DNA of 64,000 nt from Dehalococcoidia bacterium. GTDB taxonomy: Bacteria; Chloroflexota; Dehalococcoidia; Lucifugimonadales; Australimonadaceae. The notes beneath the pieces are model-generated. The model did not search any database and had not been told where the DNA came from. It worked only from the letters and a program-made list of their open reading frames with translations. The stretch is taken from contig CBDCOP010000004.1 of assembly GCA_965219845.1 (NCBI GenBank), positions 129,726 to 193,725 of the forward strand. Direction: 5' to 3'. Position numbers and translations under genes: made by a program. Shown here in pieces: positions 1,177 through 50,430 of the stretch (the first letter of the stretch is position 1; each line of letters starts with the position of its first letter).

Positions 1177-1265
1177 GTGACGCTCCTCTCGCCGCGCCGC
1201 GCGCGGGTTTGTTGCACGGCGCGAAAGGTGTAATCTTCTGCCATCCGTCTGAGGGAGGGACAGCG

Positions 1266-2324
1266 ATGCCCATCATAGACGCTGACTGCCACGTTATCGA
1301 AAGCGAACAGACCTGGGAGTACCTCGACCCGGCCGACCACGCATACAAACCCGCCTCCATGTTCGATCCCAACCGGCCCGACAGGCCCATCTGGATCATA
1401 GACGGTAAACACCGCCAGCGGCCCTTCACCACCGGAGGGACCGGCTCCGCCGCCGAGGAACTCTCCGGCTTCTCAGAGACGTCGCAAGCGACACGGACAC
1501 TCGCCGACATCACCGCGCGCCTCGCCCACATGGACGAGCTCGGGGTCGACGTGCAGGTGCTCTTCCCCACTATCTTCCTCACCCGCATCTCCGAGAACCC
1601 CGCCGTGGAGCTCGCGCTCACCAAGAGCTACAACCGCTGGCTCGCCGACATCTGGGCCGAGAGCGACGGACGCCTCCGCTGGGCCGTCGTCCCGCCGCTC
1701 AACTCGATGGACGAGGTCGAGGAGCAGTTGCGCTACGGCAAGGAGAACGGCGCGTGCGGCATCTTCATGCGAGGATTCGAGGGCGACCGGCGCCTCGTGG
1801 ACCCGCATTTCGATCCGCTCTACGAGGCGGCGCAGGAGTACGACATGCCGGTGTGCATCCATGCCGGATGCGGCAACCCCGAGTTCGTCGGACTGACCGA
1901 GGCCGACGCCTACTCCCGGAACAAGCTGCCCATCATCAGCGCGTTCCACTCCATGCTCTACCGGGGCCTGTGGCAGCGCTTCCCGCGCCTGCGTGCCGGC
2001 TTCGTGGAGGGCGCGGCCAACTGGGTGCCTTACATCCTCAACGAGGTGCAGCACCGCGCACGCCGCGACGGCAACGCGTTCGACTCCGAGAACCTCATGG
2101 CCGACAGCCGCATGTACGTCAGCTGCCAGACGAACGACGACCTGCCCTACATCTTCGCGAACGCATCAGAGGACAACTTCATGATCGGCTCCGACTACGG
2201 CCACTCCGACACCTCCAGCGAGCTGGAGGCGCTCAAGTCGCTGAAGACGAGCGGCCTGCTGGAGCCCCGCATCGTCGACAAGGTCCTCTCGGACAACCCC
2301 GCGCGCCTCTACGCCATCGAGTAG
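1266..2324 (+). CDS. amidohydrolase family protein (amidohydrolase_2 / ACMSD-like)
   Basis: ORF track gives 1209..2324. I moved the start to ATG 1266, which is preceded by GGAGGGA. It has an 'IIDADCHV' N-terminus and a 'IGSDYGHSD' C-terminal motif, and is a paralog of 17711..18811. Confidence 0.85.
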   Translation: MPIIDADCHVIESEQTWEYLDPADHAYKPASMFDPNRPDRPIWIIDGKHRQRPFTTGGTGSAAEELSGFSETSQATRTLADITARLAHMDELGVDVQVLFPTIFLTRISENPAVELALTKSYNRWLADIWAESDGRLRWAVVPPLNSMDEVEEQLRYGKENGACGIFMRGFEGDRRLVDPHFDPLYEAAQEYDMPVCIHAGCGNPEFVGLTEADAYSRNKLPIISAFHSMLYRGLWQRFPRLRAGFVEGAANWVPYILNEVQHRARRDGNAFDSENLMADSRMYVSCQTNDDLPYIFANASEDNFMIGSDYGHSDTSSELEALKSLKTSGLLEPRIVDKVLSDNPARLYAIE

Positions 2325-2406
2325 CTCCACCAGGGGGGGCGCAGCCATCCGGAAAAAGGTTGGTGTCACCAGTCCGTACTGGTACAATGCTGCCAGGAGG
2401 CCTCCC

Positions 2407-3684
2407 ATGGCAAGAGTGCGAGGACGGGTGACAACAAAAACCGGGGCAGACGTGCAACTGGACACGAGCGATGAGCATCCCGCGTTGACGCCCGTGATGC
2501 GGCGGGTGGCAGGGGGGTACTGGGAGATCGTGAGGGCCAGGGCGGCAGAGCAGGCGCTCCCCATCGTCAGAGCGTGGCTGTGGCCATACCTAGACGTCGA
2601 AGGCACCTATGTCGTGTTCCTCGTCGTACACTTGGACGCCTTTGCCGAACGGGTGTCCGCATTCCACCACGGCCTCAACCCCGACCGCAGACACTGGTAC
2701 GCTCAACTCGACGCTGAAGACCAGAAAGCGAGTTTGCGGCTGGCGCTGACGCCGGTAGGGATCCGTGGCAGAGAAGCATCCGCCATGGCGCTTGACGGTG
2801 CGTCAATGAACCGTATTGATCTGGCAGACAATCTCAACGTCCTGCCCTGTATCGGAGATGGAGCGGCATCACTCATCTACATTGACCCTCCTTTCAATAC
2901 GGGCAAGGTGCAACGCCGTGAACGCCTGCGGACAGTACATGACGAGGAAGCAGGTGATCGCTCAGGCTTTCAAGGCCGCAGGTACCGCACGGCCAAACTT
3001 GGCGCTCTTGCCTTTCCCGATGTGTTCGAGGATTTTCTGGAGTTCATCAAGCCTCGGCTGGAACATGCTTACCGCATCCTCTCGCCAAGCGGATCTTTCT
3101 TCCTGCATATCGACTACCGAGAAGTCCACTACTGCAAAGTGCTCCTGGATTCCATCTTCGGCCACGAATGCTTCATGAACGAAATTGTCTGGGCATACGA
3201 CTATGGCGGACGACCGAAAGACCGATGGCCAGCCAAGCACGATACCCTGCTCTGGTACGTGAAAAACCCACGCTGCTATACGTTCAACTATGAGGCAATC
3301 GACCGTATTCCATACATGGCGCCTGGGCTAGTGGGACCAGAGAAGGCAGCCAGAGGCAAGACGCCAACCGACGTATGGTGGCAAACCATCGTTCCTACAA
3401 ATGGGCGGGAGCGGACAGGCTATCCAACGCAGAAACCACTCCCTATCCTAGAACGCATCGTGAAGGTGCATTCCAACCCGGGCGACTTGGTGCTGGATTT
3501 CTTCGCAGGCTCAGGTACTACAGGAGAGGCGGCAGCTCGCAATGGAAGGCGATTCTGGCTTATCGACAGCAGCCCTGACGCTGCTCGCGTTATGGCAAGA
3601 CGCCTCGCTTTCAGTAATCCAGAGTGCGTGGGATTTAGCCCTGAACATATAAACTCTCAGGCATCCTTGAAAGGGATTCTATGA
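2407..3684 (+). CDS. site-specific DNA methyltransferase, beta-class N4/N6 (PF01555-like)
   Basis: Carries 'IYIDPPFNTG' (DPPF catalytic motif), then 'YPTQKP' and 'DFFAGSGTT' (AdoMet site). GC drops after about 2790, so the real start may be ATG 2785 or 2806. The 126-aa N-terminal extension is of uncertain status. Confidence 0.85.
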   Translation: MARVRGRVTTKTGADVQLDTSDEHPALTPVMRRVAGGYWEIVRARAAEQALPIVRAWLWPYLDVEGTYVVFLVVHLDAFAERVSAFHHGLNPDRRHWYAQLDAEDQKASLRLALTPVGIRGREASAMALDGASMNRIDLADNLNVLPCIGDGAASLIYIDPPFNTGKVQRRERLRTVHDEEAGDRSGFQGRRYRTAKLGALAFPDVFEDFLEFIKPRLEHAYRILSPSGSFFLHIDYREVHYCKVLLDSIFGHECFMNEIVWAYDYGGRPKDRWPAKHDTLLWYVKNPRCYTFNYEAIDRIPYMAPGLVGPEKAARGKTPTDVWWQTIVPTNGRERTGYPTQKPLPILERIVKVHSNPGDLVLDFFAGSGTTGEAAARNGRRFWLIDSSPDAARVMARRLAFSNPECVGFSPEHINSQASLKGIL

Positions 3685-4232
3685 CACGGCGCCACATCCA
3701 AGACCCTGAAGTTCAATGGCTAGCAGCCATCGCTGCATCGATTGAGCCCGATTACACATCTGAAGAAGACGAATGGTTAGCAAGTCCGTTCGGTTGGATA
3801 AAACAAAAGCCATCACGTACAGTCGGAAAAATCTTTGAGCAACTAGTGGCTGGTTGGTGTGCTGCTAAAGAATTTGATGTGACTGCCCCACCAAACTCGG
3901 ATTCCGACAGAGTAATCGGTGGGCTCAGAGCTGAAATCAAGGGCTCCACTCTATGGAAGGGTGGTGGGCTCAAGTTCCAGCAGATACGAGATCAAGAGTA
4001 TGACATCGTAATCTGCCTAGGCATACATCCCTTCGACGCCCAATGCTGGATAATTCCGAAGAGTGTATTGATGCAACATCCCGAAGGAGTTGTTTCTCAA
4101 CACGGAGGACAAGCTGGTACGGACACTGCATGGCTTGGCTTCAGCGCAGACAATCCGCCACGATGGCTGAGTCAGTGGGGAGGAAGACTCTCGGACGCGC
4201 ACCAAGTCCTACGCAACCTTACCGGTAGTTGA
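3681..4232 (+). CDS. putative type II restriction endonuclease (PD-(D/E)xK-like)
   Basis: 183-aa ORF whose ATG overlaps the methylase stop (ATGA). 'SDRVIGGLRAEIKGS' gives D-x8-E-x-K. One 60-nt line I counted is 43% GC. Confidence 0.5.
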   Translation: MTRRHIQDPEVQWLAAIAASIEPDYTSEEDEWLASPFGWIKQKPSRTVGKIFEQLVAGWCAAKEFDVTAPPNSDSDRVIGGLRAEIKGSTLWKGGGLKFQQIRDQEYDIVICLGIHPFDAQCWIIPKSVLMQHPEGVVSQHGGQAGTDTAWLGFSADNPPRWLSQWGGRLSDAHQVLRNLTGS

Positions 4233-4265
4233 CCCATCCCCCCAGTGTTGGGCCGTTCAGGACGC

Positions 4266-4290
4266 GTGATTCCCGCTCCACGGGAATCAC
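4266..4290. terminator. 10-bp-stem hairpin between convergent genes (a variant of repeat family B)
   Basis: The sequence is gtgattcccg-ctcca-cgggaatcac. It sits between the stop at 4232 (+) and the stop at 4309 (-). Confidence 0.35.
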
Positions 4291-4308
4291 AGGAGGGCAC
4301 CCCGGTCC

Positions 4309-4944
4309 CTAGAAGCACGGAACGTCGATGCGGCTGATGCGCTCGTACGCCTCGGGGTGCGACCAGAGGAAACCAACGTACTCGTTTATGTTGCCTCCGG
4401 GCCTGCCGTTCGGTCGCGCTTCCGCGGCGCGGGCCAATTCGCCGACCACGACCCTCGTGGCATGCAGCTGGGCGTCGTAGTGATCGCGCACCTGGTCAGG
4501 AACGTCCATGGCGATCAGGAACTGCTCATACGCCCGGAACTTCTGTTCCAGCTCCGAGAACGAGGAGGTCGCGACGTTGAAGCTCGGCTTGCCTGCGCAG
4601 ACGTCCTCGACGTATCTCGCGACGAGGTCCGGCGTAGGTGTCGGCTCCGGCATTGGAGTAGGCGTGGGGGTAGCGGTCGGACGTCGCGTGGGCGTCGGGT
4701 CAGGGGGCCTGGTGGGGGGCATTGCCGTCGGCGTTGGGAGCGACGCTGGCTCGGGTGTTGCCGTCGGGGCAGGGGGCTCGGGTGTCCAGGTGGGTTCGGG
4801 GGTCGGCGTCGAGGTCGGCTCGGGCGTCCACGTCGGGACTGGGGTCGCAGTCGGAGCCGATGAGCAAGCCGTCAGTGCAACCGGCGCGAGGAGCAGCGTG
4901 AGGATCAGGAAACGGGCAACCGGCCTAAGAGACGTGTGAGCCAT
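4309..4944 (-). CDS. lipoprotein with Pro/Thr-rich linker, function unknown
   Basis: Start moved to Met88 of the 298-aa ORF. It has a '[13 protein letters not shown]' lipobox-like signal, then about 90 aa of PT repeats (TWTPEP occurs twice), then a globular C-terminus. Confidence 0.6.
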
Positions 4945-4984: not shown

Positions 4985-5446
4985 CTAGAGTCTCCCGGAC
5001 TCCCGAGGGGCGGGTTTCGGGTCGTTGAAGGCGGGAACAGCGACGCCGAGGCGCTGCAGCATCGTGAAGTCGTCGCGGTCGCCCCATTGCTCGACGACGC
5101 GCCCGAGCTGAATACGGTAGACGTCGATGCGCCGCCACCAAGAGAGGTTCGCCCGCGGCGACGTGCCCATGCCCACGCCTTGGAACCCGCCGGTGAACGA
5201 GACACACGCCGCTACGCGATCCTCCGCCGCGATGAGGTCGTCCACCGTAACGTGTATCGAGGGGAACGCCGTTCTCGTCATCGTGACGAGTTGCTTGATG
5301 GGCTCCGGCCCGAAGGGGTCTTCGAGGATGCCGGCGATGTGGAGTTCCACGTCCGGCGCGTACAACTCGTCGATCAGCTCGATGCGCCCCTTGTTGTAGA
5401 CCTCCGCGTACAGGCGGCGGACGAACGCCTTGTTCTCCTCTGGCAT
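4985..5446 (-). CDS. ester cyclase / SnoaL-like (NTF2 fold) protein
   Basis: Start at Met26 (ATG 5446) with an upstream GGAGAG. '[29 protein letters not shown]' is the typical N-terminus of the predicted ester cyclase family. Confidence 0.75.
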
Positions 5447-5462
5447 CTCGCACTCTCCTTCG

Positions 5463-5699
5463 CTAGCGCGGCTCTTCCAAGTAGATGTAATTTCTTTCTT
5501 CACAGAACCTGCTGTACCCAATCACGCTTTTGCATCCCGCTGCTATTGCAGCATCGTCCCATTTGCCCAAAGTCACTCCTGCAGGCAGCCTATCCACCAG
5601 TATGTGCCACTTGCACCAGCGATACGTGCCTCCGTGCGAAGGGCATTCGGTCTTGAGAATACGAACTATCTTGTTTCGGCGTTGTCGATCCATAGTCAC
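5463..5699 (-). CDS. hypothetical small Cys/Trp-rich protein
   Basis: 78-aa ORF in a lower-GC pocket directly upstream of, and co-directional with, the ester cyclase. No motif recognised. Confidence 0.3.
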   Translation of the reverse strand: MTMDRQRRNKIVRILKTECPSHGGTYRWCKWHILVDRLPAGVTLGKWDDAAIAAGCKSVIGYSRFCEERNYIYLEEPR

Positions 5700-18920: not shown

Positions 18921-19165
18921 GATCCCCTCTCCCTACAAGGAGACCTTTGCATAACCGTGAGAGGGGATGCGGAGCGGGGTTATTTGATCCCTTCCCCCTC
19001 GATGGGGGAAGGTTAGGATGGGGGTGAATCGCGGGGTGCGGGGGCGTTCGGTGAGGGTTATGCAAAGGTCCCTACAAGGGGAGAGGGTTGGGGTGTGGGT
19101 GGGGCGAGGGCCTGCGATGGGTTATGCAAGGGTCCCTACAAGGGGAGAAGGTCAGGGTGAGGGTG
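18921..19165. repeat. composite repeat copy R2 followed by two family A units
   Basis: R2 spans 18921-19058. It is followed by two copies of GTTATGCAA(A/G)GGTCCCTACAAGGGGAGA..GGGTG.GGG. The last unit runs into the 3' end of the MFS ORF. Confidence 0.7.
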
Positions 19166-26227: not shown

Positions 26228-27794
26228 ATGACAACATCCACGCTCACCCCTCAGGAAGAAGCCTACATCTGGCGCATAGGACGCGCCCTCCGCTGTGGCA
26301 ACCCGGACTGTGGCTGCGCCCCGTCTCCGACGGACCGCCTCCACTGTCCCGTGCACCCGCATCCCTACGTCCCCACCCTCAGCGTCCGCTATGAACCCGG
26401 CTTCGGTTTCACCTTCACCTGCTCCTCCGGATGCCCCTCGGAGAAGATCAACGATGCCCTCTCGCGGCGTGGGCTTCCCCTCGAGTCCGCCCTCTTGACA
26501 GCCACCGGCGCATCCGAGCTCGGCCTTCACCCTTACGAACTCCTCATTCCCCAACCCACCGACTGGCTCTGGCCCAACCGCATCCCCATGGGCGAGCTCA
26601 CCGTCGTCGCCGGGTACCCCGCATCCGGCAAGACCGGCGGTCGCCCTCGATGTCGCAACGCGCGTCTCCCTCGGTGCGGACACCCCTGACCAGCCCGGTA
26701 CGAAGTTCGTCAGGGCGCCCGTCGTCATCGCGGCGCCGCTCAAGAACCCCCGGGCGTCGCTCCTCCCGCGTCTCAGGAGCCTCGGGGCCGACCTCAACCT
26801 CATCTACCACGCCGACCTCCTCTCTCCGATGCACCTCGCGGACTTCCCCGAGGAAGCGGGCGTCGAGAGCCTCGAAGATGTGACCAGGGACGCCAGTGCC
26901 GGCGGAGTGCCCCACTTCTTCGACCCCTTCGCTCCACCGCCTCCGCCTCCTGAACGTCCCGAACTGCCCCCTGAACCGTCGCTCCGCTTCGTCATGAACC
27001 GCCTTGCCAGCCTCATTGCCCGCGGGAGCGCCGCGCTCCTTGTCGTCGACCAGATCGAGCACCTCGCCCTCATCCACAATGCCAGGGTCTCCCACGTCGC
27101 TGGGATGCTCAACTCCCTCGCTGCGCGCACCGGCGCCGCCGTCATAGCCCTCGCGCACAACCCCGCCCACTCACTCCTTGCCGCCGCCCGCTACATGCAG
27201 CCGCGCCTCGGCATGGCCGGGACCGTCTTCACCATCGCCCTCGTCGGCGAAGACCGCGCCCGGTTCCTCGTCCCGCTCAGCCCGCCCATGCACGACGCTC
27301 TCCCGCCCATACCCTTCGCTCTCAATGAAGCCCCGCCCATCGCCTGGCGTGAGCCTATTCCCCAGGAGCGCCTTCTCGCCCTCAACGCCTCTAAAGCGTC
27401 CCGGCCGCAGCGCACGGACATGACCGGCTACGCAAGCCGCTTCCTCACCGGCGCGCTCGCCCACGGCCCGAAGCCTGCCGCCGAACTCACCAAGCGCGCC
27501 CGCGACCTTGGAATCTCGCGCCACCACCTCTCCCGTGCCCGCATCGCCTGTAACGTCACTACCGCTCGATTCAATCCCGCCGGTAGCCCGCCGGGCAGTG
27601 GCTATTGGCTCTGGTCACTCGCACAGCACACCACACCCCCCTCCGGCTCTGCTCTTGGATTCTGGAACCCGGAACAAGGCCGTGGCCTTCCGGATCAAGA
27701 ATCCAAGAAGCCAAACAGCACTTCGCACCACGAGTGTGCGCCTGCAGAAGGATATGCAGAAGAACGAGCGGAAGAAGAAGCGTATGGATGTTGA
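26228..27794 (+). pseudogene. AAA_25/RepA-like (RecA-fold) ATPase of mobile-element type, frameshifted
   Basis: It has an N-terminal Cys/His cluster, 'WLWPNRIPMGELTVVAGYPASGKT' in frame 1, then 'AVALDVATRVSLG...' in the frame of ORF 26829..27794. There is an extra base at about 26636. The C-terminus is HTH-like: 'ELTKRARDLGISRHHLSRA'. Confidence 0.55.
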
Positions 27795-27857
27795 CCGCAA
27801 CACCCGCGCCGGAACTTGCCGCGTGCGGCACGATTCCCGCCATCCGGCCCCTTCTTT

Positions 27858-27893
27858 CCCCTCTCCCCCTTGGGAAAGGGCTAGGGCGAGGGT
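27858..27893. repeat. repeat family A unit, diverged
   Basis: Sequence is cccctctcccccttgggaaagggctagggcgagggt. Confidence 0.6.
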
Positions 27894-27993
27894 ACTCCGG
27901 GGCGAAGGGGACGGGTCAGTAGGGCTCCCGCGGCAGGGCCGCCCCGACATTAGCCGGTTGACCGAGCGCCCTCCGCTCCTTAGCATCGTTTCC

Positions 27994-29361
27994 ATGGCCG
28001 AACCCGGACCGAGCCGCGCGCTCTTCGCCGACCTGTACGAACTGACGATGGCGCAGGCGTACTGGCAGCACGGCCACAACGCCTCCGCCACGTTCAGCCT
28101 CGCCTTCCGCAACCTGCCGCCGGACCGCGGCTACGCTGTCTTCGCCGGACTGGAGGACGCCCTCGGCCACTTCGAGGCGCTCCGCTTCACCGACGCCGAC
28201 GTCGACTACCTCCGCTCCCTCGGCCTCTTCGACGCCGCGTTCCTCGACTGGCTGCCGTCGTTGCGGTTCACCGGGGACATGCGGGCGATGGGCGAGGGCG
28301 AACTCGTCTTCCCGGAGGAGCCGGTAATCGAGGTCACGGCGCCCATCATCGAGGCGCAGCTCGTCGAAACGGCGGTGATGAACGCCATCGGCCTGCAGAC
28401 GATGCTCGCCACGAAAGCAGCCCGCGTCTGGTACGCGGCGCAGGGCAGGGGGGTCGTCGAGTTCGCGGCGCGCCGCACCCAGGGAGAAGAGGCGGCCGAC
28501 CGGCTCGCCCGCGTCAGCTACATGGTGGGGTTCGCGGGCACGAGCAACGTCCGCGCCGCCTCCCGCTACGGCATCCCTCCGGTCGGCACCATGGCGCACT
28601 CCTTCATCTCCAGCTTTCCCACCGAGGCCGAGGCCTTCGACGCCTACGCCGACTCCTTCCCGGACACAAGCACGCTGCTCGTGGATACCTACGACACGGT
28701 CGAGGGAGTCCGCCGCGCCGCGGAGGCCGGTAAGCGCCTCCGAAACGCAGGCCACGCCCTGCGCGCCATCCGGCTCGACAGCGGCGACCTCCTCGCGCTC
28801 TCCCTTGCGAGCCGCCGGATCCTCGACGACGCGGGCCTGCCGGACGTGCAGGTCCTGGCCAGCGGCGGCCTCGACGAGTTCGACGTAGAAGCGCTGCTTG
28901 CGGCCGGCGCGCCGATAGACGGCTTCGGCGTCGGCACGAGGCTCGGCGTCTCCGCCGATGCGCCGTGGATGGACTGGGCGTACAAGCTCGCCGAGTACGA
29001 CGGCACGCCCGTGCTCAAGCTCAGCGAGGGCAAGGCTTCGCTGGCCGGACGCAAGCAGGTCTACCGCCGGACCGGCAGCGACGGGACATACGCTGGCGAC
29101 CTGCTCGCCCTCGCGGACGAGCGGCTGCCGGACGGAGACGGCGCGCCCCTGTTGGCGCCCGCCATGCAGGGCGGACGGCGCATTGTTCCCGCGCTACCGC
29201 TCGCGGAGCTGCGAGAACGCTTCGCCGCCAACTTCGCACGCCTCCCGGAGCGGTACAAGGCGCTGCGCTCGCCTGAACTCTACCCGGTGCAACACACCTG
29301 GGCGCTGGAGGAGGAGCAATGGGGAGCGACGCAGAACACGCTTGCACGGCAGCAACGCTGA
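27994..29361 (+). CDS. pncB: nicotinate phosphoribosyltransferase
   Basis: Start at ATG 27994. 'LFADLYELTMAQAYW' N-terminus and 'GTMAHSFI' motif. The upstream part of the track ORF crosses a repeat and the preceding gene. Confidence 0.9.
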   Translation: MAEPGPSRALFADLYELTMAQAYWQHGHNASATFSLAFRNLPPDRGYAVFAGLEDALGHFEALRFTDADVDYLRSLGLFDAAFLDWLPSLRFTGDMRAMGEGELVFPEEPVIEVTAPIIEAQLVETAVMNAIGLQTMLATKAARVWYAAQGRGVVEFAARRTQGEEAADRLARVSYMVGFAGTSNVRAASRYGIPPVGTMAHSFISSFPTEAEAFDAYADSFPDTSTLLVDTYDTVEGVRRAAEAGKRLRNAGHALRAIRLDSGDLLALSLASRRILDDAGLPDVQVLASGGLDEFDVEALLAAGAPIDGFGVGTRLGVSADAPWMDWAYKLAEYDGTPVLKLSEGKASLAGRKQVYRRTGSDGTYAGDLLALADERLPDGDGAPLLAPAMQGGRRIVPALPLAELRERFAANFARLPERYKALRSPELYPVQHTWALEEEQWGATQNTLARQQR

Positions 29362-29387: not shown

Positions 29388-30005
29388 CTACTCCTCGGCC
29401 AGCGTTTCTTCCGTCGTGGCGAGCACTGCGCCGTTGAGCTCCATCAGGTGCAGCGCGCGGTCGCCGTCGCCCGACTCGACGTTCACCGCCGCGACCGCGT
29501 CGGACAGCACGTACGTCTCGTACCCGTTGCCGAGCGCGTCCACCACCGTGTTCACGACGCAGTAGTCGGTCGCGAGTCCGCCCACGTACACCCGCGTGAT
29601 GCCGCCGGCCTTGAGTTGCGCGTCGAGGTCGGAGTCGACGAATCCGGAGTAAGCGTCCTTGTCTAAACTTGCGCCCTTGCGGATCACTCGCGTCCCCTCC
29701 GGCAACTCCAACTCCGCATGGAACGCCGCTCCGTGCGAGTCCTGCACACAATGGTCCGGCCACTGTCCGCCCTGCGACGCGAACGAGGAATGTCCCGCCG
29801 GGTGCCAGTCCTGCGTCGCGAACACCTTGCCGCCGCGCTCGGCGAACGTCTTCGCAGTGGCGCTCATCTTCCGTGCGACTGAGTCGCCGCCCCGCACGCC
29901 GAGCGAGCCGCCGGGACAGAAGTCGTTCTGCACGTCGACGACGATCAACGCGTCCAGGTTCGTGATCCGCACGGCGCACCTCCTCGCGGGATTTACCCCC
30001 CCCAT
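29388..30005 (-). CDS. pncA: nicotinamidase / pyrazinamidase (isochorismatase family)
   Basis: 'LIVVDVQNDFCPGG', 'QDWHP' and 'GLATDYCV' are present. It is convergent with pncB. Confidence 0.85.
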   Translation of the reverse strand: MGGVNPARRCAVRITNLDALIVVDVQNDFCPGGSLGVRGGDSVARKMSATAKTFAERGGKVFATQDWHPAGHSSFASQGGQWPDHCVQDSHGAAFHAELELPEGTRVIRKGASLDKDAYSGFVDSDLDAQLKAGGITRVYVGGLATDYCVVNTVVDALGNGYETYVLSDAVAAVNVESGDGDRALHLMELNGAVLATTEETLAEE

Positions 30006-30073
30006 GGTACGCCCGCTGACACCCGCTGCAGGAAGGGCAGGGGGTGGCCTATGGTAAAATAGCCTTGCTTTCT

Positions 30074-30171
30074 CCCCTCTCCTGAGGGAGAGGGTTAGGG
30101 TGAGGGCCCCCGGTGGGGTGGAGTGGACGGGTTGTGCAAGGGTCCCTCTGGGAGAGGGTTAGGGTGAGGGC
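30074..30171. repeat. two repeat family A units
   Basis: Units at 30074-30107 and 30131-30171. The second is of the GTTGTGCAAGGGTCCCT subtype. Confidence 0.75.
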
Positions 30172-30229
30172 TCACAGGGCAGGGTAGGTAGGTTACACAT
30201 AGGTCCTAACTGACAGGCGAGGCTCCAGA

Positions 30230-31132
30230 ATGCACTTCACGAAACTCCAGGGCGCGGGCAACGACTACATCTTCGTCGACGGCCTGAACGAGCAGCGCGA
30301 CTGGCCGGAGATGGCGCGGCGGGTGTCCGACCGGCACTTCGGCATCGGCGCGGACGGCCTCATCGTCGTCGCGCCGTCGGAGCGCGCCCCGGTGCGGATG
30401 TGGATGTTCAACGTCGACGGCTCCGAGGGCGAGATGTGCGGCAACGGCATCCGCTGCTTCGCCAAGTTCGTGCTGGAGAGAGGCATGGTTCCCGCCAACG
30501 GCAGCACGCTGGACGTGGAGACCGGCGCCGGCGTGTTGAGCATCGCTCCCCACTGGAGCGATGACCGTGTCGTCGGCGCACGCGTGAACATGGGAGAACC
30601 CATCCTCCGCGCCGCGGACGTGCCGGTCGACGTCTCGAAGATGGGCCCCAGCGACTACTCCGCGCTGGACGCCGGCCTCGTCGAATCGCTTGGACTACGG
30701 CCCGGCGAGCTGGCGTTCGATGCGCCGGTCGAGGTGAACGGCATTACGTTCGTGCTCACTGCGGTCTCGATGGGTAACCCGCACGTAACGGCCTTCATCG
30801 ATGAGCCGGTGAACAGCGTGGAACTGGACAGGGTCGGGCCTCGCATGGAACACCACGAGGCGTACCCGCGCCGGATCAACTTCCACCTCACGAACGTCGT
30901 TGCGCGTGACCACCTCATCTCGCGGACGTGGGAGCGCGGCTCCGGCCTGACGCTCGCATGCGGAACGGGCGTGAGCGCGATCGTAGTCGCAGCGCGCCTC
31001 CACGGGCTCGTGGACGACGAGGTGCGCGTGGACGTGCCCGGCGGCGAACTCACGATCGCCTGGCCGGGCCACGGCCCCGTGTTCATGGACGGCGACGCGG
31101 TCGAGGTCTTCTCCGGCGAGTGGCCGGACTGA
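30230..31132 (+). CDS. dapF: diaminopimelate epimerase
   Basis: 'FTKLQGAGNDYIFVD', 'GEMCGNGIRC' and 'LACGTG' match the two-cysteine DapF pattern. Confidence 0.9.
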   Translation: MHFTKLQGAGNDYIFVDGLNEQRDWPEMARRVSDRHFGIGADGLIVVAPSERAPVRMWMFNVDGSEGEMCGNGIRCFAKFVLERGMVPANGSTLDVETGAGVLSIAPHWSDDRVVGARVNMGEPILRAADVPVDVSKMGPSDYSALDAGLVESLGLRPGELAFDAPVEVNGITFVLTAVSMGNPHVTAFIDEPVNSVELDRVGPRMEHHEAYPRRINFHLTNVVARDHLISRTWERGSGLTLACGTGVSAIVVAARLHGLVDDEVRVDVPGGELTIAWPGHGPVFMDGDAVEVFSGEWPD

Positions 31133-31141
31133 GGCTGCATA

Positions 31142-31744
31142 GTGCACGTAGCAATCCAAGTCCGCATAGACAACCTCAACGCAGAGCAGATTGTGGCCTG
31201 CCTAAGGGATGCTTTCACGGATGCAGTTCCGATAGAGCAGGCCAGAGAAAACAGCAGTGTCCTGAATGCTGGTCAGAAGTCGGCCTCTACAATCAAGTAC
31301 GCCTGCCGTCCAACCAATGAGTCAATAGCGCTGTTCTCAATGCCGGGTGGGGGAATGGTCGGGTGCGTCCTGGAGTTCGTTTACTCATCGAACGAGACGC
31401 TGCTTGCCTTGACAGAATACACAGTCGACGTCATCGAGCGGCAAGTAAAGCGCAGTAGAGGCAAGTTCCATTTCTTGAAGGCCCGACTCGAAGACGTAAG
31501 TTCTCTGGGAACAGCGGTCGAGGGCACACCCTTACATTGGTTCAACCGCGTTCGCATGCACGTTGCGCAGCGCGACCTGCTGAATAAACTAGTGGTGGTT
31601 ACAACACTGGTAGGGATTGGTTCTTTCATGACCGACCTGAAAGCAGGCGCGGTGCTTGCAGGGGTTGGCGTAGCTGTGTCCCTGGCAGTGTCACTCGCTC
31701 AAGCGGCTTGGGAGCGACGCAGAGTCGAATGGAGGATCAGATGA
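31142..31744 (+). CDS. hypothetical protein with C-terminal transmembrane segment(s)
   Basis: GTG start 10 nt after the dapF stop. About 145 aa are soluble and unrecognised, followed by 'LVVVTTLVGIGSFM' and 'AVLAGVGVAVSLAVSLAQAAW'. Lower GC. Confidence 0.5.
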   Translation: MHVAIQVRIDNLNAEQIVACLRDAFTDAVPIEQARENSSVLNAGQKSASTIKYACRPTNESIALFSMPGGGMVGCVLEFVYSSNETLLALTEYTVDVIERQVKRSRGKFHFLKARLEDVSSLGTAVEGTPLHWFNRVRMHVAQRDLLNKLVVVTTLVGIGSFMTDLKAGAVLAGVGVAVSLAVSLAQAAWERRRVEWRIR

Positions 31745-32148
31745 ACCTACAAAAAGGGCTAGTGCATGAGCGCGCCGTGACTCAAAGCCTAGCAGAGTAC
31801 TTCAGAGCAGGCGGCTTTGAAGTGGCCAAGGAGGAGCGCTTACCTTGGGGAGGCCGAGCTGACCTCCTCGTCTACCTGCCGCATAACCGCATTCTGCTCT
31901 TCGAGGTCAAGACTGGCACGAAGGGTGATTACTTGGACATGCTCACCACGTTCGCGCGGATTGAAGGATACAAGGACAGGGTCAAATACGCGCACCCGGA
32001 TGCAGAAGTGACGGAAGCTGTCGTCACGAACATGATTGTCGGAGAGAATCTAGCTGATTTCTTTGACAAATCAGGAGTGCACATCGTCCGGATTCAAGAT
32101 GAGAACGATAGCCTAGAGGCTAAACTCGCCCCGCTGCTGTCAGCGTAG
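31741..32148 (+). CDS. small PD-(D/E)xK nuclease-fold protein (YraN/Hjc-like)
   Basis: ATG 31741 follows GGAGG and overlaps the upstream stop (ATGA). 'HERAV...GGRADLLVYLPHNRILLFEVKTG' gives E..D-x13-E-x-K. Confidence 0.55.
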   Translation: MNLQKGLVHERAVTQSLAEYFRAGGFEVAKEERLPWGGRADLLVYLPHNRILLFEVKTGTKGDYLDMLTTFARIEGYKDRVKYAHPDAEVTEAVVTNMIVGENLADFFDKSGVHIVRIQDENDSLEAKLAPLLSA

Positions 32149-32174
32149 ATCCACGACTTGGAGGTTCCTTCCGT

Positions 32175-33353
32175 ATGCAACTCGCCAACCGGCTCGACCA
32201 GCTCCCGCCGTATATCTTCCTGGAGATCAGCCGGAAGATCGCAGAGAAGCGCGCCCAGGGGATGGACGTCATCAGCTTCGGCATCGGCGACCCGGACATC
32301 CCGACGCCAGAGCACATCCTGACCACTCTCAAGACGGCCTCCGACGACCCGCCCAATCATCGCTACCCCGAGTCCGACGGCCTGCCGGAGATGCGACAGG
32401 CCATCGCCCGTTGGTACACACGGCGCTTCGACATCGAACTGGGCGACAAGGAGATCGTGCCGCTCATCGGGGCCAAGGAGGGCATCGGCCACATGGCGCT
32501 GTGCCTCATCGACCCCGGCGACATCGCGCTCGTGCCTGACCCCGCGTACCCGGTCTACTCGGTCGGCACCATGTTCGCGGGCGGAATCTCCCACAGGATG
32601 CCGCTGCTGGAAGAGAACGCCTTCCACCCGGACCTTTCGCAGATACCGGAGGACGTGGCGCGTAAGGCGAAGGTGCTCTGGTTCAACTACCCGAACAACC
32701 CCACGGGAGCGCTCGCGACGCCTGAGCTGTTCCAGGAGGTCGTGGCGTTCGCCAAGGAGTACGACATCGCGGTCTGCCACGACGCTTGCTACTCCGAGGT
32801 AACGTTCGACGGCTACGTCGCGCCGAGCTTCCTGCAGACGCCCGGAGCAATCGACGTGGGTATCGAGTTCCACTCGCTCTCCAAGACCTACAACATGACG
32901 GGCTGGCGCATCGGCATGGCCGCAGGCAACCAGCAGCTCATCGACGCGCTCATACGGGTGAAGTCCAACCTGGACTCCGGCATCCCGCAGGCGGTGCAGT
33001 ACATGGGGATCGAGGCGTTGGACAACACCACGCCCGAGTGGCTGGCCGCGAACAACGAGATATACCGCAGGCGGCGCGACCGCGTGGTGGACGCGCTCAC
33101 GGCCATCGGGCTGCAGGTGAACCGGCCCAAGTCCGGCTTCTACATCTGGGCGCGCTGCCCGGACGGCTGGACCTCGGCGCAGCTGGCAACCGAGCTTCTG
33201 GACAAGCACGCCGTCGTCGTCACGCCGGGTCGTGGCTACGGTGAGGCCGGAGAAGGCTACATACGCCTCTCGCTCACGACACCGGACGAGCGCGTGGACG
33301 AGGGCCTGCAACGGCTCGAGGGCTGGCGTCTGCCGGACGCGCCAGCGGTTTAG
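32175..33353 (+). CDS. dapL: LL-diaminopimelate aminotransferase-type class I aminotransferase
   Basis: 'LPPYIFLEISRKIAEKRAQGMDVISFGIGDPDIPTP', 'YPNNPTG' and 'SLSKTYNMTGWRIG' are present. The dapF neighbourhood supports the call. Confidence 0.75.
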   Translation: MQLANRLDQLPPYIFLEISRKIAEKRAQGMDVISFGIGDPDIPTPEHILTTLKTASDDPPNHRYPESDGLPEMRQAIARWYTRRFDIELGDKEIVPLIGAKEGIGHMALCLIDPGDIALVPDPAYPVYSVGTMFAGGISHRMPLLEENAFHPDLSQIPEDVARKAKVLWFNYPNNPTGALATPELFQEVVAFAKEYDIAVCHDACYSEVTFDGYVAPSFLQTPGAIDVGIEFHSLSKTYNMTGWRIGMAAGNQQLIDALIRVKSNLDSGIPQAVQYMGIEALDNTTPEWLAANNEIYRRRRDRVVDALTAIGLQVNRPKSGFYIWARCPDGWTSAQLATELLDKHAVVVTPGRGYGEAGEGYIRLSLTTPDERVDEGLQRLEGWRLPDAPAV

Positions 33354-33378
33354 GACACCGGCTCCTTCTCCGCACGGC

Positions 33379-34623
33379 GTGGCAGCGGGTAGAATCGTAA
33401 TCACCAAACCGGAGCGCTCACCCATAGCACGGCAATCGAGAACGGTGGAAACGGCCCAACTGCAGGAGCAGGCGCTGCTCGTTGGCGTGGGCATCAAGGG
33501 GCGGCGTTCGCCTTGGACGATAGCCGACTCGCTCGAAGAGCTCGCGCAGCTCGCCGACACGGCAGGCGCAGAGGTCGCCGGAACGGTCTCCCAGCAGTTG
33601 GAAGCGCCGTCGCACACGTACGTCGGCAAGGGCAAACTGCAGGAGATCGCCGACGCGCGACGCGCAATGGGCTTCGGCACGTTGATCTGCGACGACGAAC
33701 TGACCCCCACGCAGCAGCAGAACCTCGAGCGCGCACTCGGCGAACACGTGAAGGTGATCGACCGCACCGCGCTCATCCTGGATGTATTCGCACGGCATGC
33801 AAGAACGCACGAGGGGCGCTTACAGGTGGAACTGGCACAGTCGGAGTACCTGCTGCCGCGCCTGGCGGGCCAGTGGAGCCACCTGGAGCGTCTCGGCGGC
33901 GGCATCGGCACGCGCGGCCCCGGGGAGACGCAGATAGAAACTGACCGGCGGCTTGTCGGACAGCGTATCCAGCGACTGAAGCAGGAGTTGGAGAAGGTAC
34001 GCCGCCATCGCGCCCAGTACCGGGCCCGTCGACACAGGAACAGGCTGCCCGTTGTCGCGCTCGTGGGCTACACGAACGCGGGCAAGAGCAGCCTGCTGAA
34101 CGCGCTCTCCGGCGCAGGCGTGCTTGCGCGCGGTCAGCTCTTCTCGACGCTGGACCCGGTGACGCGCAAGGTGCGCCTGCCGGACGGCAGCGACGCGTTG
34201 CTCACGGACACGGTGGGCTTCATCCAGAAGCTACCCACGACGCTCGTCGCGGCCTTCCGCGCGACGCTGGAGGAGGTGCAGGAGGCCTCGTTCTTGTTGC
34301 ACGTGGTTGACATCTCGCATCCCAACGCGGCGGAGCAGGTCGAGGTCGTCGAGGACATCCTGCGCGACCTGGGTCTCACCGACACGCCGCGCGTGCTTGC
34401 GCTCAACAAGGTGGACCTGCTGGACTCCGGTGGCGATGCGGGCTTCGTGCCGGAAGCGGAAGGCATCAGGGCGGTTCTTACGTCGACGGTGACGGGAGCC
34501 GGACTGCAGGAGCTGTTGCAGGCAGTGTCCGCGCAGGTGAACGATGATGTACCATCCGGCACCGAAGCGGCGCTTGCAGGCGCGAGAGCAAAACGAGGAG
34601 CGACCCACAGGAACCATGGCTGA
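33379..34623 (+). CDS. hflX: GTPase HflX
   Basis: 'GKGKLQEI', 'VIDRTALILDIFA'-like, 'LGGGIGTRGPGETQIE' and 'VALVGYTNAGKSSLLNAL' are present. The start is uncertain, GTG 33379 or GTG 33445. The upstream part of the track ORF overlaps dapL. Confidence 0.85.
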   Translation: MAAGRIVITKPERSPIARQSRTVETAQLQEQALLVGVGIKGRRSPWTIADSLEELAQLADTAGAEVAGTVSQQLEAPSHTYVGKGKLQEIADARRAMGFGTLICDDELTPTQQQNLERALGEHVKVIDRTALILDVFARHARTHEGRLQVELAQSEYLLPRLAGQWSHLERLGGGIGTRGPGETQIETDRRLVGQRIQRLKQELEKVRRHRAQYRARRHRNRLPVVALVGYTNAGKSSLLNALSGAGVLARGQLFSTLDPVTRKVRLPDGSDALLTDTVGFIQKLPTTLVAAFRATLEEVQEASFLLHVVDISHPNAAEQVEVVEDILRDLGLTDTPRVLALNKVDLLDSGGDAGFVPEAEGIRAVLTSTVTGAGLQELLQAVSAQVNDDVPSGTEAALAGARAKRGATHRNHG

Positions 34624-49761: not shown

Positions 49762-50430
49762 ATGGACTGGGACGCCCTCAGACTGAGCCTGCAGACCGGC
49801 CTTGCGAGCACCATGCTCGCATTGGTTGTCGGCATCCCGGTTGCCTGGGGGCTCTCGCGTTTACACGGTTGGGCGCACGACCTGCTCTCTACCGCCGTGC
49901 TCGTCCCCATGGTGCTGCCGCCCACTGTGCTGGGTTACTACCTGCTGCTGGCGGTCGGGCGCAACTCTCCCCTCGGCGGAGCGCTGGATGCCTTGTTCGG
50001 CTTCAGTTTCGTTTTCGAATGGAGCGGGGCGGTGCTCGCGGCCTTCTTCGTTTCGGCGCCATTCCTCGTACGGACCGCGCAGGCGGGGTTCGAGTCGGTG
50101 GACCATACACTGGAAGACGCGGCCCGCACGCTTGGGCAGACCGAGTGGAGCGTCTTCACCCGGATAACGCTTCCTCTCGCCTGGCGCTCGGTGATGACCG
50201 GCGTCAGCCTTGCGCTCGCGCGGGCTGTCGGCGAGTTCGGCGCAACGCTCATGGTGGCGGGAAGCATCCCCGGACGCACGCGCACGATGCCCATCGCCAT
50301 CTACGAGGCCGTGCTGACCGGACGGACGAGCGAGGCGCAGGTGCTCGCGCTCACCCTCACCCTCGCTGCCAGCGGCCTGCTCGTCGCCGTTGCGTTCGGG
50401 ATGCGACGGAGAGGCGTGCGCCTGCGCTAG
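49762..50430 (+). CDS. modB: molybdate ABC transporter permease
   Basis: 222 aa. 'EDAARTLGQTEWSVFTRITLPLA' is the EAA loop, and 'GEFGATLMVAGSIPG' is present. Confidence 0.85.
   Translation: MDWDALRLSLQTGLASTMLALVVGIPVAWGLSRLHGWAHDLLSTAVLVPMVLPPTVLGYYLLLAVGRNSPLGGALDALFGFSFVFEWSGAVLAAFFVSAPFLVRTAQAGFESVDHTLEDAARTLGQTEWSVFTRITLPLAWRSVMTGVSLALARAVGEFGATLMVAGSIPGRTRTMPIAIYEAVLTGRTSEAQVLALTLTLAASGLLVAVAFGMRRRGVRLR

Follow-up and report, generated by a model that had tools for sequence, protein, structure and literature searches.

Our analysis provides evidence for a small accessory module of two open reading frames (ORFs), ORF1 and ORF2, wedged between the diaminopimelate genes dapF and dapL in a 64-kb stretch of DNA from a Dehalococcoidia bacterium (contig CBDCOP010000004.1; the whole stretch of 64,000 nucleotides is called the window below). 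The overall best explanation of the data is an accessory, conflict-type gene pair in a recombining dapF-dapL hotspot, to which we assign a probability of about 50%. Our confidence is high in the evolutionary description of the pair and its slot, and moderate in the functional (conflict) reading of the pair. A sequence-only reading of the same stretch had proposed a horizontally inserted module consisting of a membrane-anchored protein and a minimal nuclease. Coordinates refer to the whole window throughout, L-numbers are labels of compared loci, and P-numbers are labels of compared proteins.

The gene order is pncB (ending at 29361, plus strand), pncA (29388-30005, minus strand), dapF, ORF1, ORF2, dapL and hflX, and the argument leans on the following features (aa, amino acids):

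30230-31132, plus strand: dapF, diaminopimelate epimerase (Pfam DAP_epimerase, E 4.9e-54; TIGR00652, E 3.5e-76)
30641-31140, plus strand: 3' half of dapF with raised divergence, 83-95% identity (96-100% further upstream) between the window and L003, L004 and L005
31131-31134, plus strand: GAGG ribosome-binding site of ORF1, overlapping the dapF stop codon (31130-31132), 7 nt before the GTG
31142-31744, plus strand: ORF1, 200 aa, GTG start
31583-31711, plus strand: predicted hydrophobic hairpin of ORF1, codons 148-190, two adjacent helices at about residues 148-166 and 168-190
31731-31744, plus strand: translational-coupling element, a GGAGGA Shine-Dalgarno sequence (31731-31736) plus the ATGA start/stop overlap (31741-31744)
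31741-32148, plus strand: ORF2, 135 aa
31861-31863, 31903-31905 and 31909-31911, plus strand: codons of the predicted catalytic residues D41, E55 and K57 in the ORF2 motif
32149-32174, plus strand: spacer of 26 nt between ORF2 and dapL, carrying the dapL ribosome-binding site GGAGG (32160-32164)
32175-33353, plus strand: dapL, LL-diaminopimelate aminotransferase (NF006756, 585 bits vs a 507-bit cut-off)

The core genes dapF and dapL anchor the slot on its left and right side, respectively, and dapF lies directly 5' of the cassette in all related loci. The low-GC two-ORF segment which the sequence-only reading had placed between the dapF stop (31132) and the dapL start (32175) is confirmed in both coordinates and composition. 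The two genes stand about 1 kb apart, the intervening segment has a GC content of 0.53-0.57, and GC measured in 300-nt windows drops from 0.66-0.70 outside to 0.53-0.58 over about 31100-32300. GC at third codon positions (GC3) is 0.61 in ORF1 and 0.63 in ORF2, compared with 0.90 in dapF and dapL.

The dapF-dapL slot and its cargo

Junction occupancy was scored in about 49 species representatives from a DapL-based scan, which used one genome per GTDB species and which puts the window in Dehalococcoidia. The junction is empty (dapF and dapL at most 100 nt apart) in 23 of these, including the nearest other species, L008 (DapL 77% identical), where the two genes lie 14 nt apart. About 26 representatives carry 0.25-3 kb of cargo at the junction, often of lower GC. 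The ORF1-ORF2 pair is missing from L007, L008 and all other Dehalococcoidia species representatives scanned, and the segment is accessory DNA, not native to the dap operon.

According to Pfam the slot cargo includes HicA (E 5.6e-16), HicB-like, Gp49/HigB-like (E 4.9e-13), Uma2 (E 7e-26), EEP nuclease and Nmad3/Nmad2 proteins; many cargo ORFs fall into no family. The hidden Markov models (HMMs) of PADLOC-DB v2.0.0, which served as defence models throughout, gave no matches to the slot cargo. Comparisons by hhalign of ORF2 with Uma2 and of ORF2 with a slot ORF from L033 revealed no relationship. In the genus of the window the slot takes four forms: the pair only (window, L002-L006, L091), the pair plus Nmad3/Nmad2 (L001, L087, L088), the pair plus a decayed Nmad3 (L089), and Nmad3/Nmad2 only (the close relative L007). 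In L100-L102 the order dapF-ORF1-ORF2 is followed by at least 4.4 kb of unannotated ORFs, with no dapL.

No integrase, transposase, or terminal or att-like repeats were seen at the slot junctions. There is no attC site 3' of the cassette either, the 26-nt spacer being free of inverted repeats and terminator-like sites. An integron gene cassette was considered and ruled out, as the spacer between ORF2 and dapL is filled by the dapL ribosome-binding site. Constant flanks, variable cargo and the lack of integrases or repeats characterize a core-gene-flanked hotspot, and the dapF-dapL junction combines all of these; it is a micro-hotspot for small modules across Dehalococcoidia. In its constant core flanks, its variable lower-GC cargo and its lack of mobile-element scars it resembles cDHS1 and cDHS2 of Pseudomonas aeruginosa (PMC10250203), and homologous recombination via the flanks is the likely exchange route here as well; cargo exchange through conserved flanks has been proposed for these core defence hotspots (PMC10250203). 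The slot differs from them in its position within a biosynthetic operon, where it takes up the space from a stop codon to the following ribosome-binding site, and in its cargo, which is mostly toxin-antitoxin genes, small nucleases and unannotated ORFs, not recognised defence systems. It is also much smaller: its 0-3 kb compare with a cDHS1 median of 26 kb (PMC10250203).

Some of the cargo deserves mention on its own. The Nmad3 plus Nmad2 module (PF18754, PF18753) occupies the slot alone (L007, 3169-4429) or stacked after the pair (L001, 6427-7827; L087, 5428-6850; L088, 5427-6863), and in L089 Nmad3 has decayed to a 44-aa remnant (5427-5561). The module is followed by a spacer of 400-500 nt with a CCTGTATAATC box about 45-60 nt before dapL. 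Because the validated and predicted defence systems listed in PMC13092281 include some with an NMAD domain, the module is a plausible defence neighbour of the pair; a literature search for Nmad2/Nmad3 by name returned nothing relevant. In another Dehalococcoidia clade, the commonest cargo directly upstream of dapL is an unannotated family of 219-416 aa (L032, 5295-5954; L047, 5244-5930; L050, 4146-5984; L052, 5247-6002; L053, 4890-5993; L056, 4628-5878). Members of this family tested against Pfam (L032) and PADLOC (L032, L053, L056) gave no match. A leucine-rich-repeat protein of 425 aa (L100, 1372-2649, also in L101 and L102; GCA_002238425.1; LRR_1, E 2.9e-49) lies upstream of dapF in L100-L102, where other loci have pncA and pncB. 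Eukaryote-like repeat proteins are typical of host-associated symbionts, e.g. those of sponges.

Old cassette alleles in a young background

Between the window and the loci L003-L005 the flanking nucleotides are 97-100% identical, as are the proteins PncA (98-100%) and DapL (97-99%). In sharp contrast, nucleotide identity over 31141-32140 is only 51-75% (sliding 100-nt windows), with ORF1 about 50% and ORF2 57% identical. The right edge of the cassette is sharp: at the ORF2 stop codon identity jumps from 75% to the 96-99% of the spacer. On the left side the divergent 3' half of dapF listed above is probably either the left recombination tract or a stretch whose divergence is linked to the cassette alleles.

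Synonymous divergence (dS) between the window and L005 is 1.5 for ORF1 and 1.9 for ORF2, compared with 0.058 for dapL and 0.22 for dapF, and the ratio of nonsynonymous to synonymous divergence (omega) of the cassette genes is 0.16-0.27 for the same two loci. ORF1 and ORF2 are under purifying selection and have conserved homologues, and are more than chance ORFs. The cassettes are old alleles in a young background; rapid adaptive change is excluded because synonymous divergence is saturated. L001 has more distant flanks than L003-L005 (DapF 91%, DapL 95%) and a cassette that is closer to that of the window (ORF2 81%), and the cassette and flank phylogenies are incongruent. Codon usage of the cassette is non-native in every allele. 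The data indicate ancient alleles that are swapped by recombination.

The proposal of a horizontally inserted module can thus be kept in part. Its accessory nature stands, given the empty junctions of L008 and 22 other species, the different cargo of L007 and the non-native codons; the pair is not a vertically conserved part of the dap locus with native codon usage. A simple recent insertion does not stand, because the pair fills the junction in each of the related contigs recovered, and a lineage with a DapF only 46% identical to that of the window has it there too. Strains differ in which of the deeply diverged alleles they carry in the slot.

One 3.49 Mb linear contig, ctg246004_10x_l (ENA ERZ25072076), carries both the exact allele of the window (L096, 10864-17271) and a divergent allele (L004, 3437749-3450156). 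The pncB-hflX locus is present twice on it, at about 14 kb and at 3.444 Mb, and the offset implies about 64 kb of terminal overlap. The simplest reading is that of overlapping ends of an uncircularised contig from two co-existing strains; alternatively, the double locus is a real duplication. Gene decay was also considered and rejected. The ORF1 calls of 126-134 aa in L088, L089, L096 and L097 reflect start-codon choices on intact frames, and where ORF1 is truly interrupted, in L002 and L003, the breaks consist of clustered homopolymer indels in long-read assemblies of 18-25x coverage and are probably assembly errors.

The pair and its two proteins

In all loci recovered, ORF1 and ORF2 adjoin and overlap. 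Each distant ORF1 relative is followed by an ORF of 141-150 aa through the identical 4-nt overlap; in L093 this partner is homologous to ORF2 and retains the motif (hhalign probability 96%, E 3e-9, 27% identity), and in L094 it matches the extended ORF2 profile. Since adjacency and overlap hold in all loci, distant lineages included, the pair is an obligate unit. Its position is almost always between dapF and dapL. The soil contig L093, with the 46% identical DapF mentioned above, has the order dapF-Uma2-ORF1-like-ORF2-like-dapL, and the closest relatives of L093 by DapF (72-74% identical) carry other cargo and no pair. GC of the pair is about 10 points below that of the host in both lineages. 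Because this deficit is present in both, low GC does not date the insertion; it is a persistent property, not a sign of recent arrival.

In the only ectopic copy, L092, ORF1 is preceded by a fused remnant of about 65 nt from the 3' end of dapF. L092 therefore derives from a dapF-linked copy, and on that ground its candidacy as an independent second genomic context was ruled out. Here the pair lies in a different backbone within a 3.6 kb low-GC island (1200-4800; GC 0.48-0.58 vs 0.65-0.76 in the flanks), which contains, besides several small unannotated ORFs, a gene for a Trypsin_2-like protease (4019-4690); coverage of the L092 contig is only 2x.

Both families are tiny. Among 5.8 billion proteins we found 11 clusters of the ORF2 family and nine of the ORF1 family. 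A second, profile-based search for ORF2 added no new members; with its 11 clusters and two distant members the family is closed. For ORF1, exhaustive profile searching with HMMER across 1.84 billion representatives found five, two of which are distant (P0022 and P0023). Scanning JGI metagenomes with the soil subfamily only recovered the same sequence again (L095), and hmmsearch with the extended profiles against all ORFs of 95 loci and the window yielded no further diverged copies and no paralogues.

The ATGA overlap and the plausible ribosome-binding sites of both ORFs, already pointed out in the sequence-only reading, are present as described. The GTG of ORF1 lies 9 nt past the dapF stop codon, and the TGAG(G/A) arrangement of dapF stop and ORF1 ribosome-binding site is kept in related loci. 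The start call of ORF1 is supported because the alleles put either ATG or GTG at the identical position, followed by a conserved CACGT. The GGAGGA of ORF2 sits within the final ORF1 codons (E-W-R-I-R), 4 nt before the ORF2 ATG, and TGGAG(G) together with ATGA is kept in 13 of the 13 loci examined, L093 and L094 included. The C-terminal E/Q-W-R of ORF1 is conserved, and this conservation is at least partly a nucleotide constraint, since its TGG-AGG codons form the ORF2 Shine-Dalgarno sequence. On the other side of ORF2, the variable segment ends sharply at the spacer 32149-32174, which is too tight to accommodate a terminator, promoter or attC-like site; the GGAGGTTCCTTCCGT-ATG stretch before dapL is also present in loci with other cargo. 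A scan of 29900-33500 that assumes sigma-70-type signals found no promoter-like sites, and the same region contains one weak terminator-like site (31359-31373, inside ORF1) with 2.3 expected by chance. Most simply, these signals suggest that ORF1 and ORF2 are two extra cistrons of the dapF-dapL transcript.

ORF2 carries the motif GGRAD(41)-x13-E(55)-V-K(57), and R39, D41, E55 and K57 are invariant over 10 ORF2-family sequences, down to 26% identity. Its AlphaFold2 (AF2) model (pLDDT 86, pTM 0.84) has an alpha-beta-beta-beta-alpha-beta core composed of helix 2-23, strands 27-33, 39-46 and 50-57, helix 64-84 and strand 89-96, with D41 on strand 39-46 and both E55 and K57 on strand 50-57. All matches of this model in a Foldseek search against PDB are PD-(D/E)xK nucleases, with template-modelling (TM) scores of 0.5-0.65; these include AF1548, NucS/EndoMS, the R2 restriction-like endonuclease (RLE) domain, Can2/Card1/Cdn1, MspJI and XisH. 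Foldseek against the viral library BFVD returned PD-(D/E)xK, Mrr and MmcB-like proteins. ORF2 shares with the superfamily (PF08011, PF06319; AF1548, 1y88; NucS/EndoMS, 2vld and 5gke; Can2/Card1/Cdn1) the predicted core topology and the invariant D on strand 2 and E-x-K on strand 3 (Foldseek probability 1.0, TM 0.57-0.65). Unlike the named families it stands alone, at 135 aa and without a sensor or partner domain, and remains below the Pfam cut-off.

By sequence, ORF2 of the window reaches Pfam PDDEXK_9 at E 1e-4 and 22.7 bits, under the 25.5-bit cut-off, and matches MmcB-like more weakly. Among 10 members of the extended family searched up to E 0.1, five match PDDEXK_9 (best E 2.7e-6), five MmcB-like and three VRR_NUC, while SfsA and RmuC are matched by single members; we take all five to be PD-(D/E)xK-type families. 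The ORF2 relative P0005 has a precomputed PF08011 match, flagged as weak in its context table, and a sequence-profile search of the ORF2 family against PDB sequences gave no match. Because the matches stay below threshold, ORF2 cannot be filed in PDDEXK_9 or another family; with its borderline match to PDDEXK_9 it is placed at the level of the PD-(D/E)xK superfamily only, of which fold and motif make it a member. The C-terminal half (residues 88-135, beta-alpha-beta-alpha) is the most conserved part among close alleles, and omega of ORF2 is 0.07-0.26. Motif, AF2 model and Foldseek agree on the PD-(D/E)xK core which the sequence-only reading had seen in the letters. Fold and motif together identify ORF2 as a predicted minimal stand-alone PD-(D/E)xK nuclease-fold protein, and its intact Mg2+-type motif suggests nuclease activity.

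ORF1 has no match in Pfam, NCBIfam, PADLOC or PHROGs, nor does a profile search of its family find a match among PDB sequences. As far as these libraries and profiles reach, ORF1 represents a new family, without detectable relatives outside its own tiny circle, in line with the earlier failure to place its N-terminal domain. The one or two C-terminal transmembrane helices expected beforehand correspond to two hydrophobic segments that are conserved family-wide. The Kyte-Doolittle maximum over 19 residues is 2.1, 19-residue windows of at least 1.6 occur at the hairpin in all family members (distant P0022 and P0023 included), and AF2 puts helices at 133-160 and 166-190 with low confidence. ORF1 thus probably combines a soluble alpha/beta N-terminal region with a C-terminal two-helix membrane hairpin, which would leave its basic C-terminal tail and N-terminal domain on one side, presumably the cytoplasmic one. 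Y53, C55 and T58 (of a Y-x-C-x-P-T motif), E78, R144 and W197 are invariant, and omega of ORF1 is 0.12-0.31.

Possible mode of action and competing explanations

In the scenario we prefer, a promoterless two-gene accessory module occupies the space between the dapF stop codon and the dapL ribosome-binding site and is presumably transcribed with the operon. The soluble domain of ORF1 would be held at the cytoplasmic face of the membrane by the C-terminal two-helix hairpin. Translational coupling would yield ORF1 and ORF2 in a fixed ratio, because the ORF2 Shine-Dalgarno sequence lies inside the final ORF1 codons, and the two proteins may assemble into a complex at the membrane, with ORF1 restraining, localising or triggering the nuclease. 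The pair would act as a conflict-type module, through either toxin-antitoxin-like addiction or abortive-infection-type defence; its context makes a toxin-antitoxin or defence role plausible. Slot cargo would be exchanged by homologous recombination via the conserved flanking genes, and this exchange would place anciently diverged cassette alleles into near-identical genomes. A bolder version sees a hitherto unrecognised two-component immunity or addiction system, with a membrane-tethered sensor or inhibitor, a minimal DNase and ancient balanced alleles at an operon-embedded hotspot, and in its radical form lets the nuclease target the junction and drive homing. We regard this version as doubtful, if conceivable.

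By analogy, the pair resembles small toxin-antitoxin and defence modules, and yet it could be identified with none of the named ones. With type II toxin-antitoxin systems (HicAB, HigBA/Gp49) it shares two small genes, a 4-nt overlap, a patchy accessory distribution, lower GC and the same slot; it differs in having no toxin or antitoxin family match and no promoter of its own, in its very narrow rather than promiscuous distribution, and in an upstream partner that is a predicted membrane-anchored protein of 200 aa without a DNA-binding domain. In Kiwa and Zorya, a membrane-embedded component is encoded beside a cytoplasmic DNA-targeting effector. The likeness to these systems is one of concept only: there is no homology (PADLOC negative), ORF1 has merely a two-helix hairpin, and the proteins of the pair are much smaller. 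XisH/XisI of cyanobacteria are likewise small paired genes, and ORF2 is XisH-sized and superposes on XisH (2inb, 2okf) at TM 0.53-0.55; unlike XisH/XisI, however, the pair has no Pfam XisH match (10 members, E up to 0.1), no XisI-like partner and another gene order.

Several results weigh against a conflict module. Neither protein matches a PADLOC model, ORF2 being only marginal against the nuclease part of Csx1 (E 0.0077), and the distant L093 pair has no PADLOC match either. Both ORF profiles found neither family in IMG/VR viral contigs. Nearly confined to one chromosomal position in two Dehalococcoidia lineages, the pair is very rare, unlike typical toxin-antitoxin or defence families, and no promoter belonging to it was detected. 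ORF1 lacks a DNA-binding domain or any other domain of antitoxin type, and by hhalign it is unrelated to the HicB-like slot proteins (probability 0.1%); its AF2 model is unreliable (pLDDT 54) and too poor for a fold search, and its membrane insertion is predicted from hydropathy. Omega gives no sign of diversifying selection. Finally, the weaker synonymous constraint of the cassette (GC3 0.63 vs 0.90) could explain part of its excess dS. The extreme GC3 of the flanks probably depresses their dS somewhat, but the GC3 effect cannot explain a 25-fold dS excess or the incongruent topology. The sequence-only reading had also named three observations that would speak against it, namely vertically inherited native genes, a non-nuclease fold of ORF2 and a lack of co-occurrence; none of them was made, and ORF1 and ORF2 occur together in every locus examined.

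The most serious competitor, unlikely in our view, is a lineage-specific membrane-associated nuclease complex for DNA processing or repair, which would work in a NucS/EndoMS- or MmcB-like manner, or a nuclease that acts on membrane-located DNA, and which would simply reside in the dap operon. The best structural matches of ORF2 include NucS/EndoMS (2vld, 5gke), and the weak MmcB-like Pfam matches point the same way. Steady purifying selection on both genes, one chromosomal position kept across very deep divergence, and a setting without mobile-element genes nearby, PADLOC matches or copies on viral contigs would all suit such a housekeeping-like role. A resident repair complex is hard to reconcile, however, with the absence of the pair from its closest other genomes (L007, L008) and all other species representatives scanned, with non-native codon usage in every allele, with allele swapping that is decoupled from the genome backbone, and with a slot that elsewhere houses toxin-antitoxin genes.

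Alternatively, the cassette could be selfish and of the homing type: ORF2 would cut dapF-dapL junctions that lack the cassette, and their repair on the template of an occupied copy would carry the cassette, with some of its flank, into the same site. Free-standing homing endonuclease genes in phages spread this way, and PD-(D/E)xK homing endonucleases such as I-Ssp6803I exist. The raised-divergence tract in the 3' half of dapF beside the cassette resembles co-conversion, the ectopic L092 copy has carried some 65 nt of dapF along, the identical junction is occupied in lineages with a DapF only 46% identical, and the cassette is promoterless and lies between conserved genes. We nevertheless judge homing to be improbable. 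There is no constant target junction, because the immediate neighbours of the cassette differ: in L001 it touches dapF, with Nmad before dapL, and in L093 it touches dapL, with Uma2 after dapF. The right flank shows no co-conversion tract, the membrane-anchored partner has no role in homing, and the use of the slot by unrelated cargo speaks for a general hotspot.

A regulator or envelope-linked factor of diaminopimelate/lysine synthesis, inherited vertically and lost many times, would account for a pair that is tightly embedded, shares transcription signals with the operon and is associated with dapF-dapL in two very distant lineages. We consider this very improbable. The pair is missing from most genomes with the same operon, its phylogeny is incongruent with that of the flanks, its GC3 is far from that of the operon genes, and toxin-antitoxin and Nmad genes are interchangeable with it in the slot; moreover, no role for a nuclease is known in the DapL route of lysine synthesis. 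Just as little credit can be given to a functionless remnant of an old insertion, kept only because its deletion would damage dapL expression: the family is tiny and the segment sits without its own promoter or terminator in an essential operon, but both frames are intact with omega of 0.07-0.31 at a synonymous divergence that is saturated, homologues with 26% identity still keep the catalytic residues and the coupling signal, and apart from homopolymer indels in long-read assemblies of low coverage (L002, L003) no disruption is apparent.

If the pair is indeed a conflict module, the known bacterial toxin or defence systems would gain a new protein family (ORF1) and a new architecture, in which a bare PD-(D/E)xK domain is translationally coupled to a membrane hairpin protein, from the uncultivated and little-studied class Dehalococcoidia. 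Whatever its function, a tiny, scar-free hotspot in an essential biosynthetic operon gathers toxin-antitoxin and nuclease cassettes class-wide, and deeply diverged alleles are shuffled among near-identical strains. This makes the dapF-dapL junction a convenient place to look for new small systems in Chloroflexota metagenomes, as well as a natural marker of recombination between strains. The finding does not yet overturn any current expectation.

Three minor observations concern the surroundings of the slot. A second variable region lies just upstream of pncB in close relatives (L003, 592-2157; L004, 1-2191; L005, 1-3770; L006, 1-3739), equivalent to the region upstream of about 27800 in the window. 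Its cargo comprises AAA_25 ATPase genes, NotI or XhoI restriction endonuclease genes and an IS110-family transposase, and the gene calls of L005 and L006 show AAA_25 apparently fused to pncB. The pncB ORF of the window (27508-29361, 617 aa) has a long low-complexity N-terminal extension; homology to the NAPRTase of relatives (456-461 aa) begins near 28000, which probably puts the true start some 160 codons downstream of 27508. In the pncA-dapF spacer (30006-30229), about 117 bp are missing from L001 and L005. This spacer holds two direct copies of GAGAGGGTTAGGGTGAGGGC (30088-30107 and 30152-30171), a motif that recurs at 19081, 19145, 21367, 21675, 22564, 24011 and 24209 on the plus strand and at 50347 on the minus strand. 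With 10 occurrences in the window at up to three mismatches, where 0.01 would be expected, and almost all of them on the plus strand, it looks like a small interspersed repeat of the REP (repetitive extragenic palindrome) or MITE (miniature inverted-repeat transposable element) kind.

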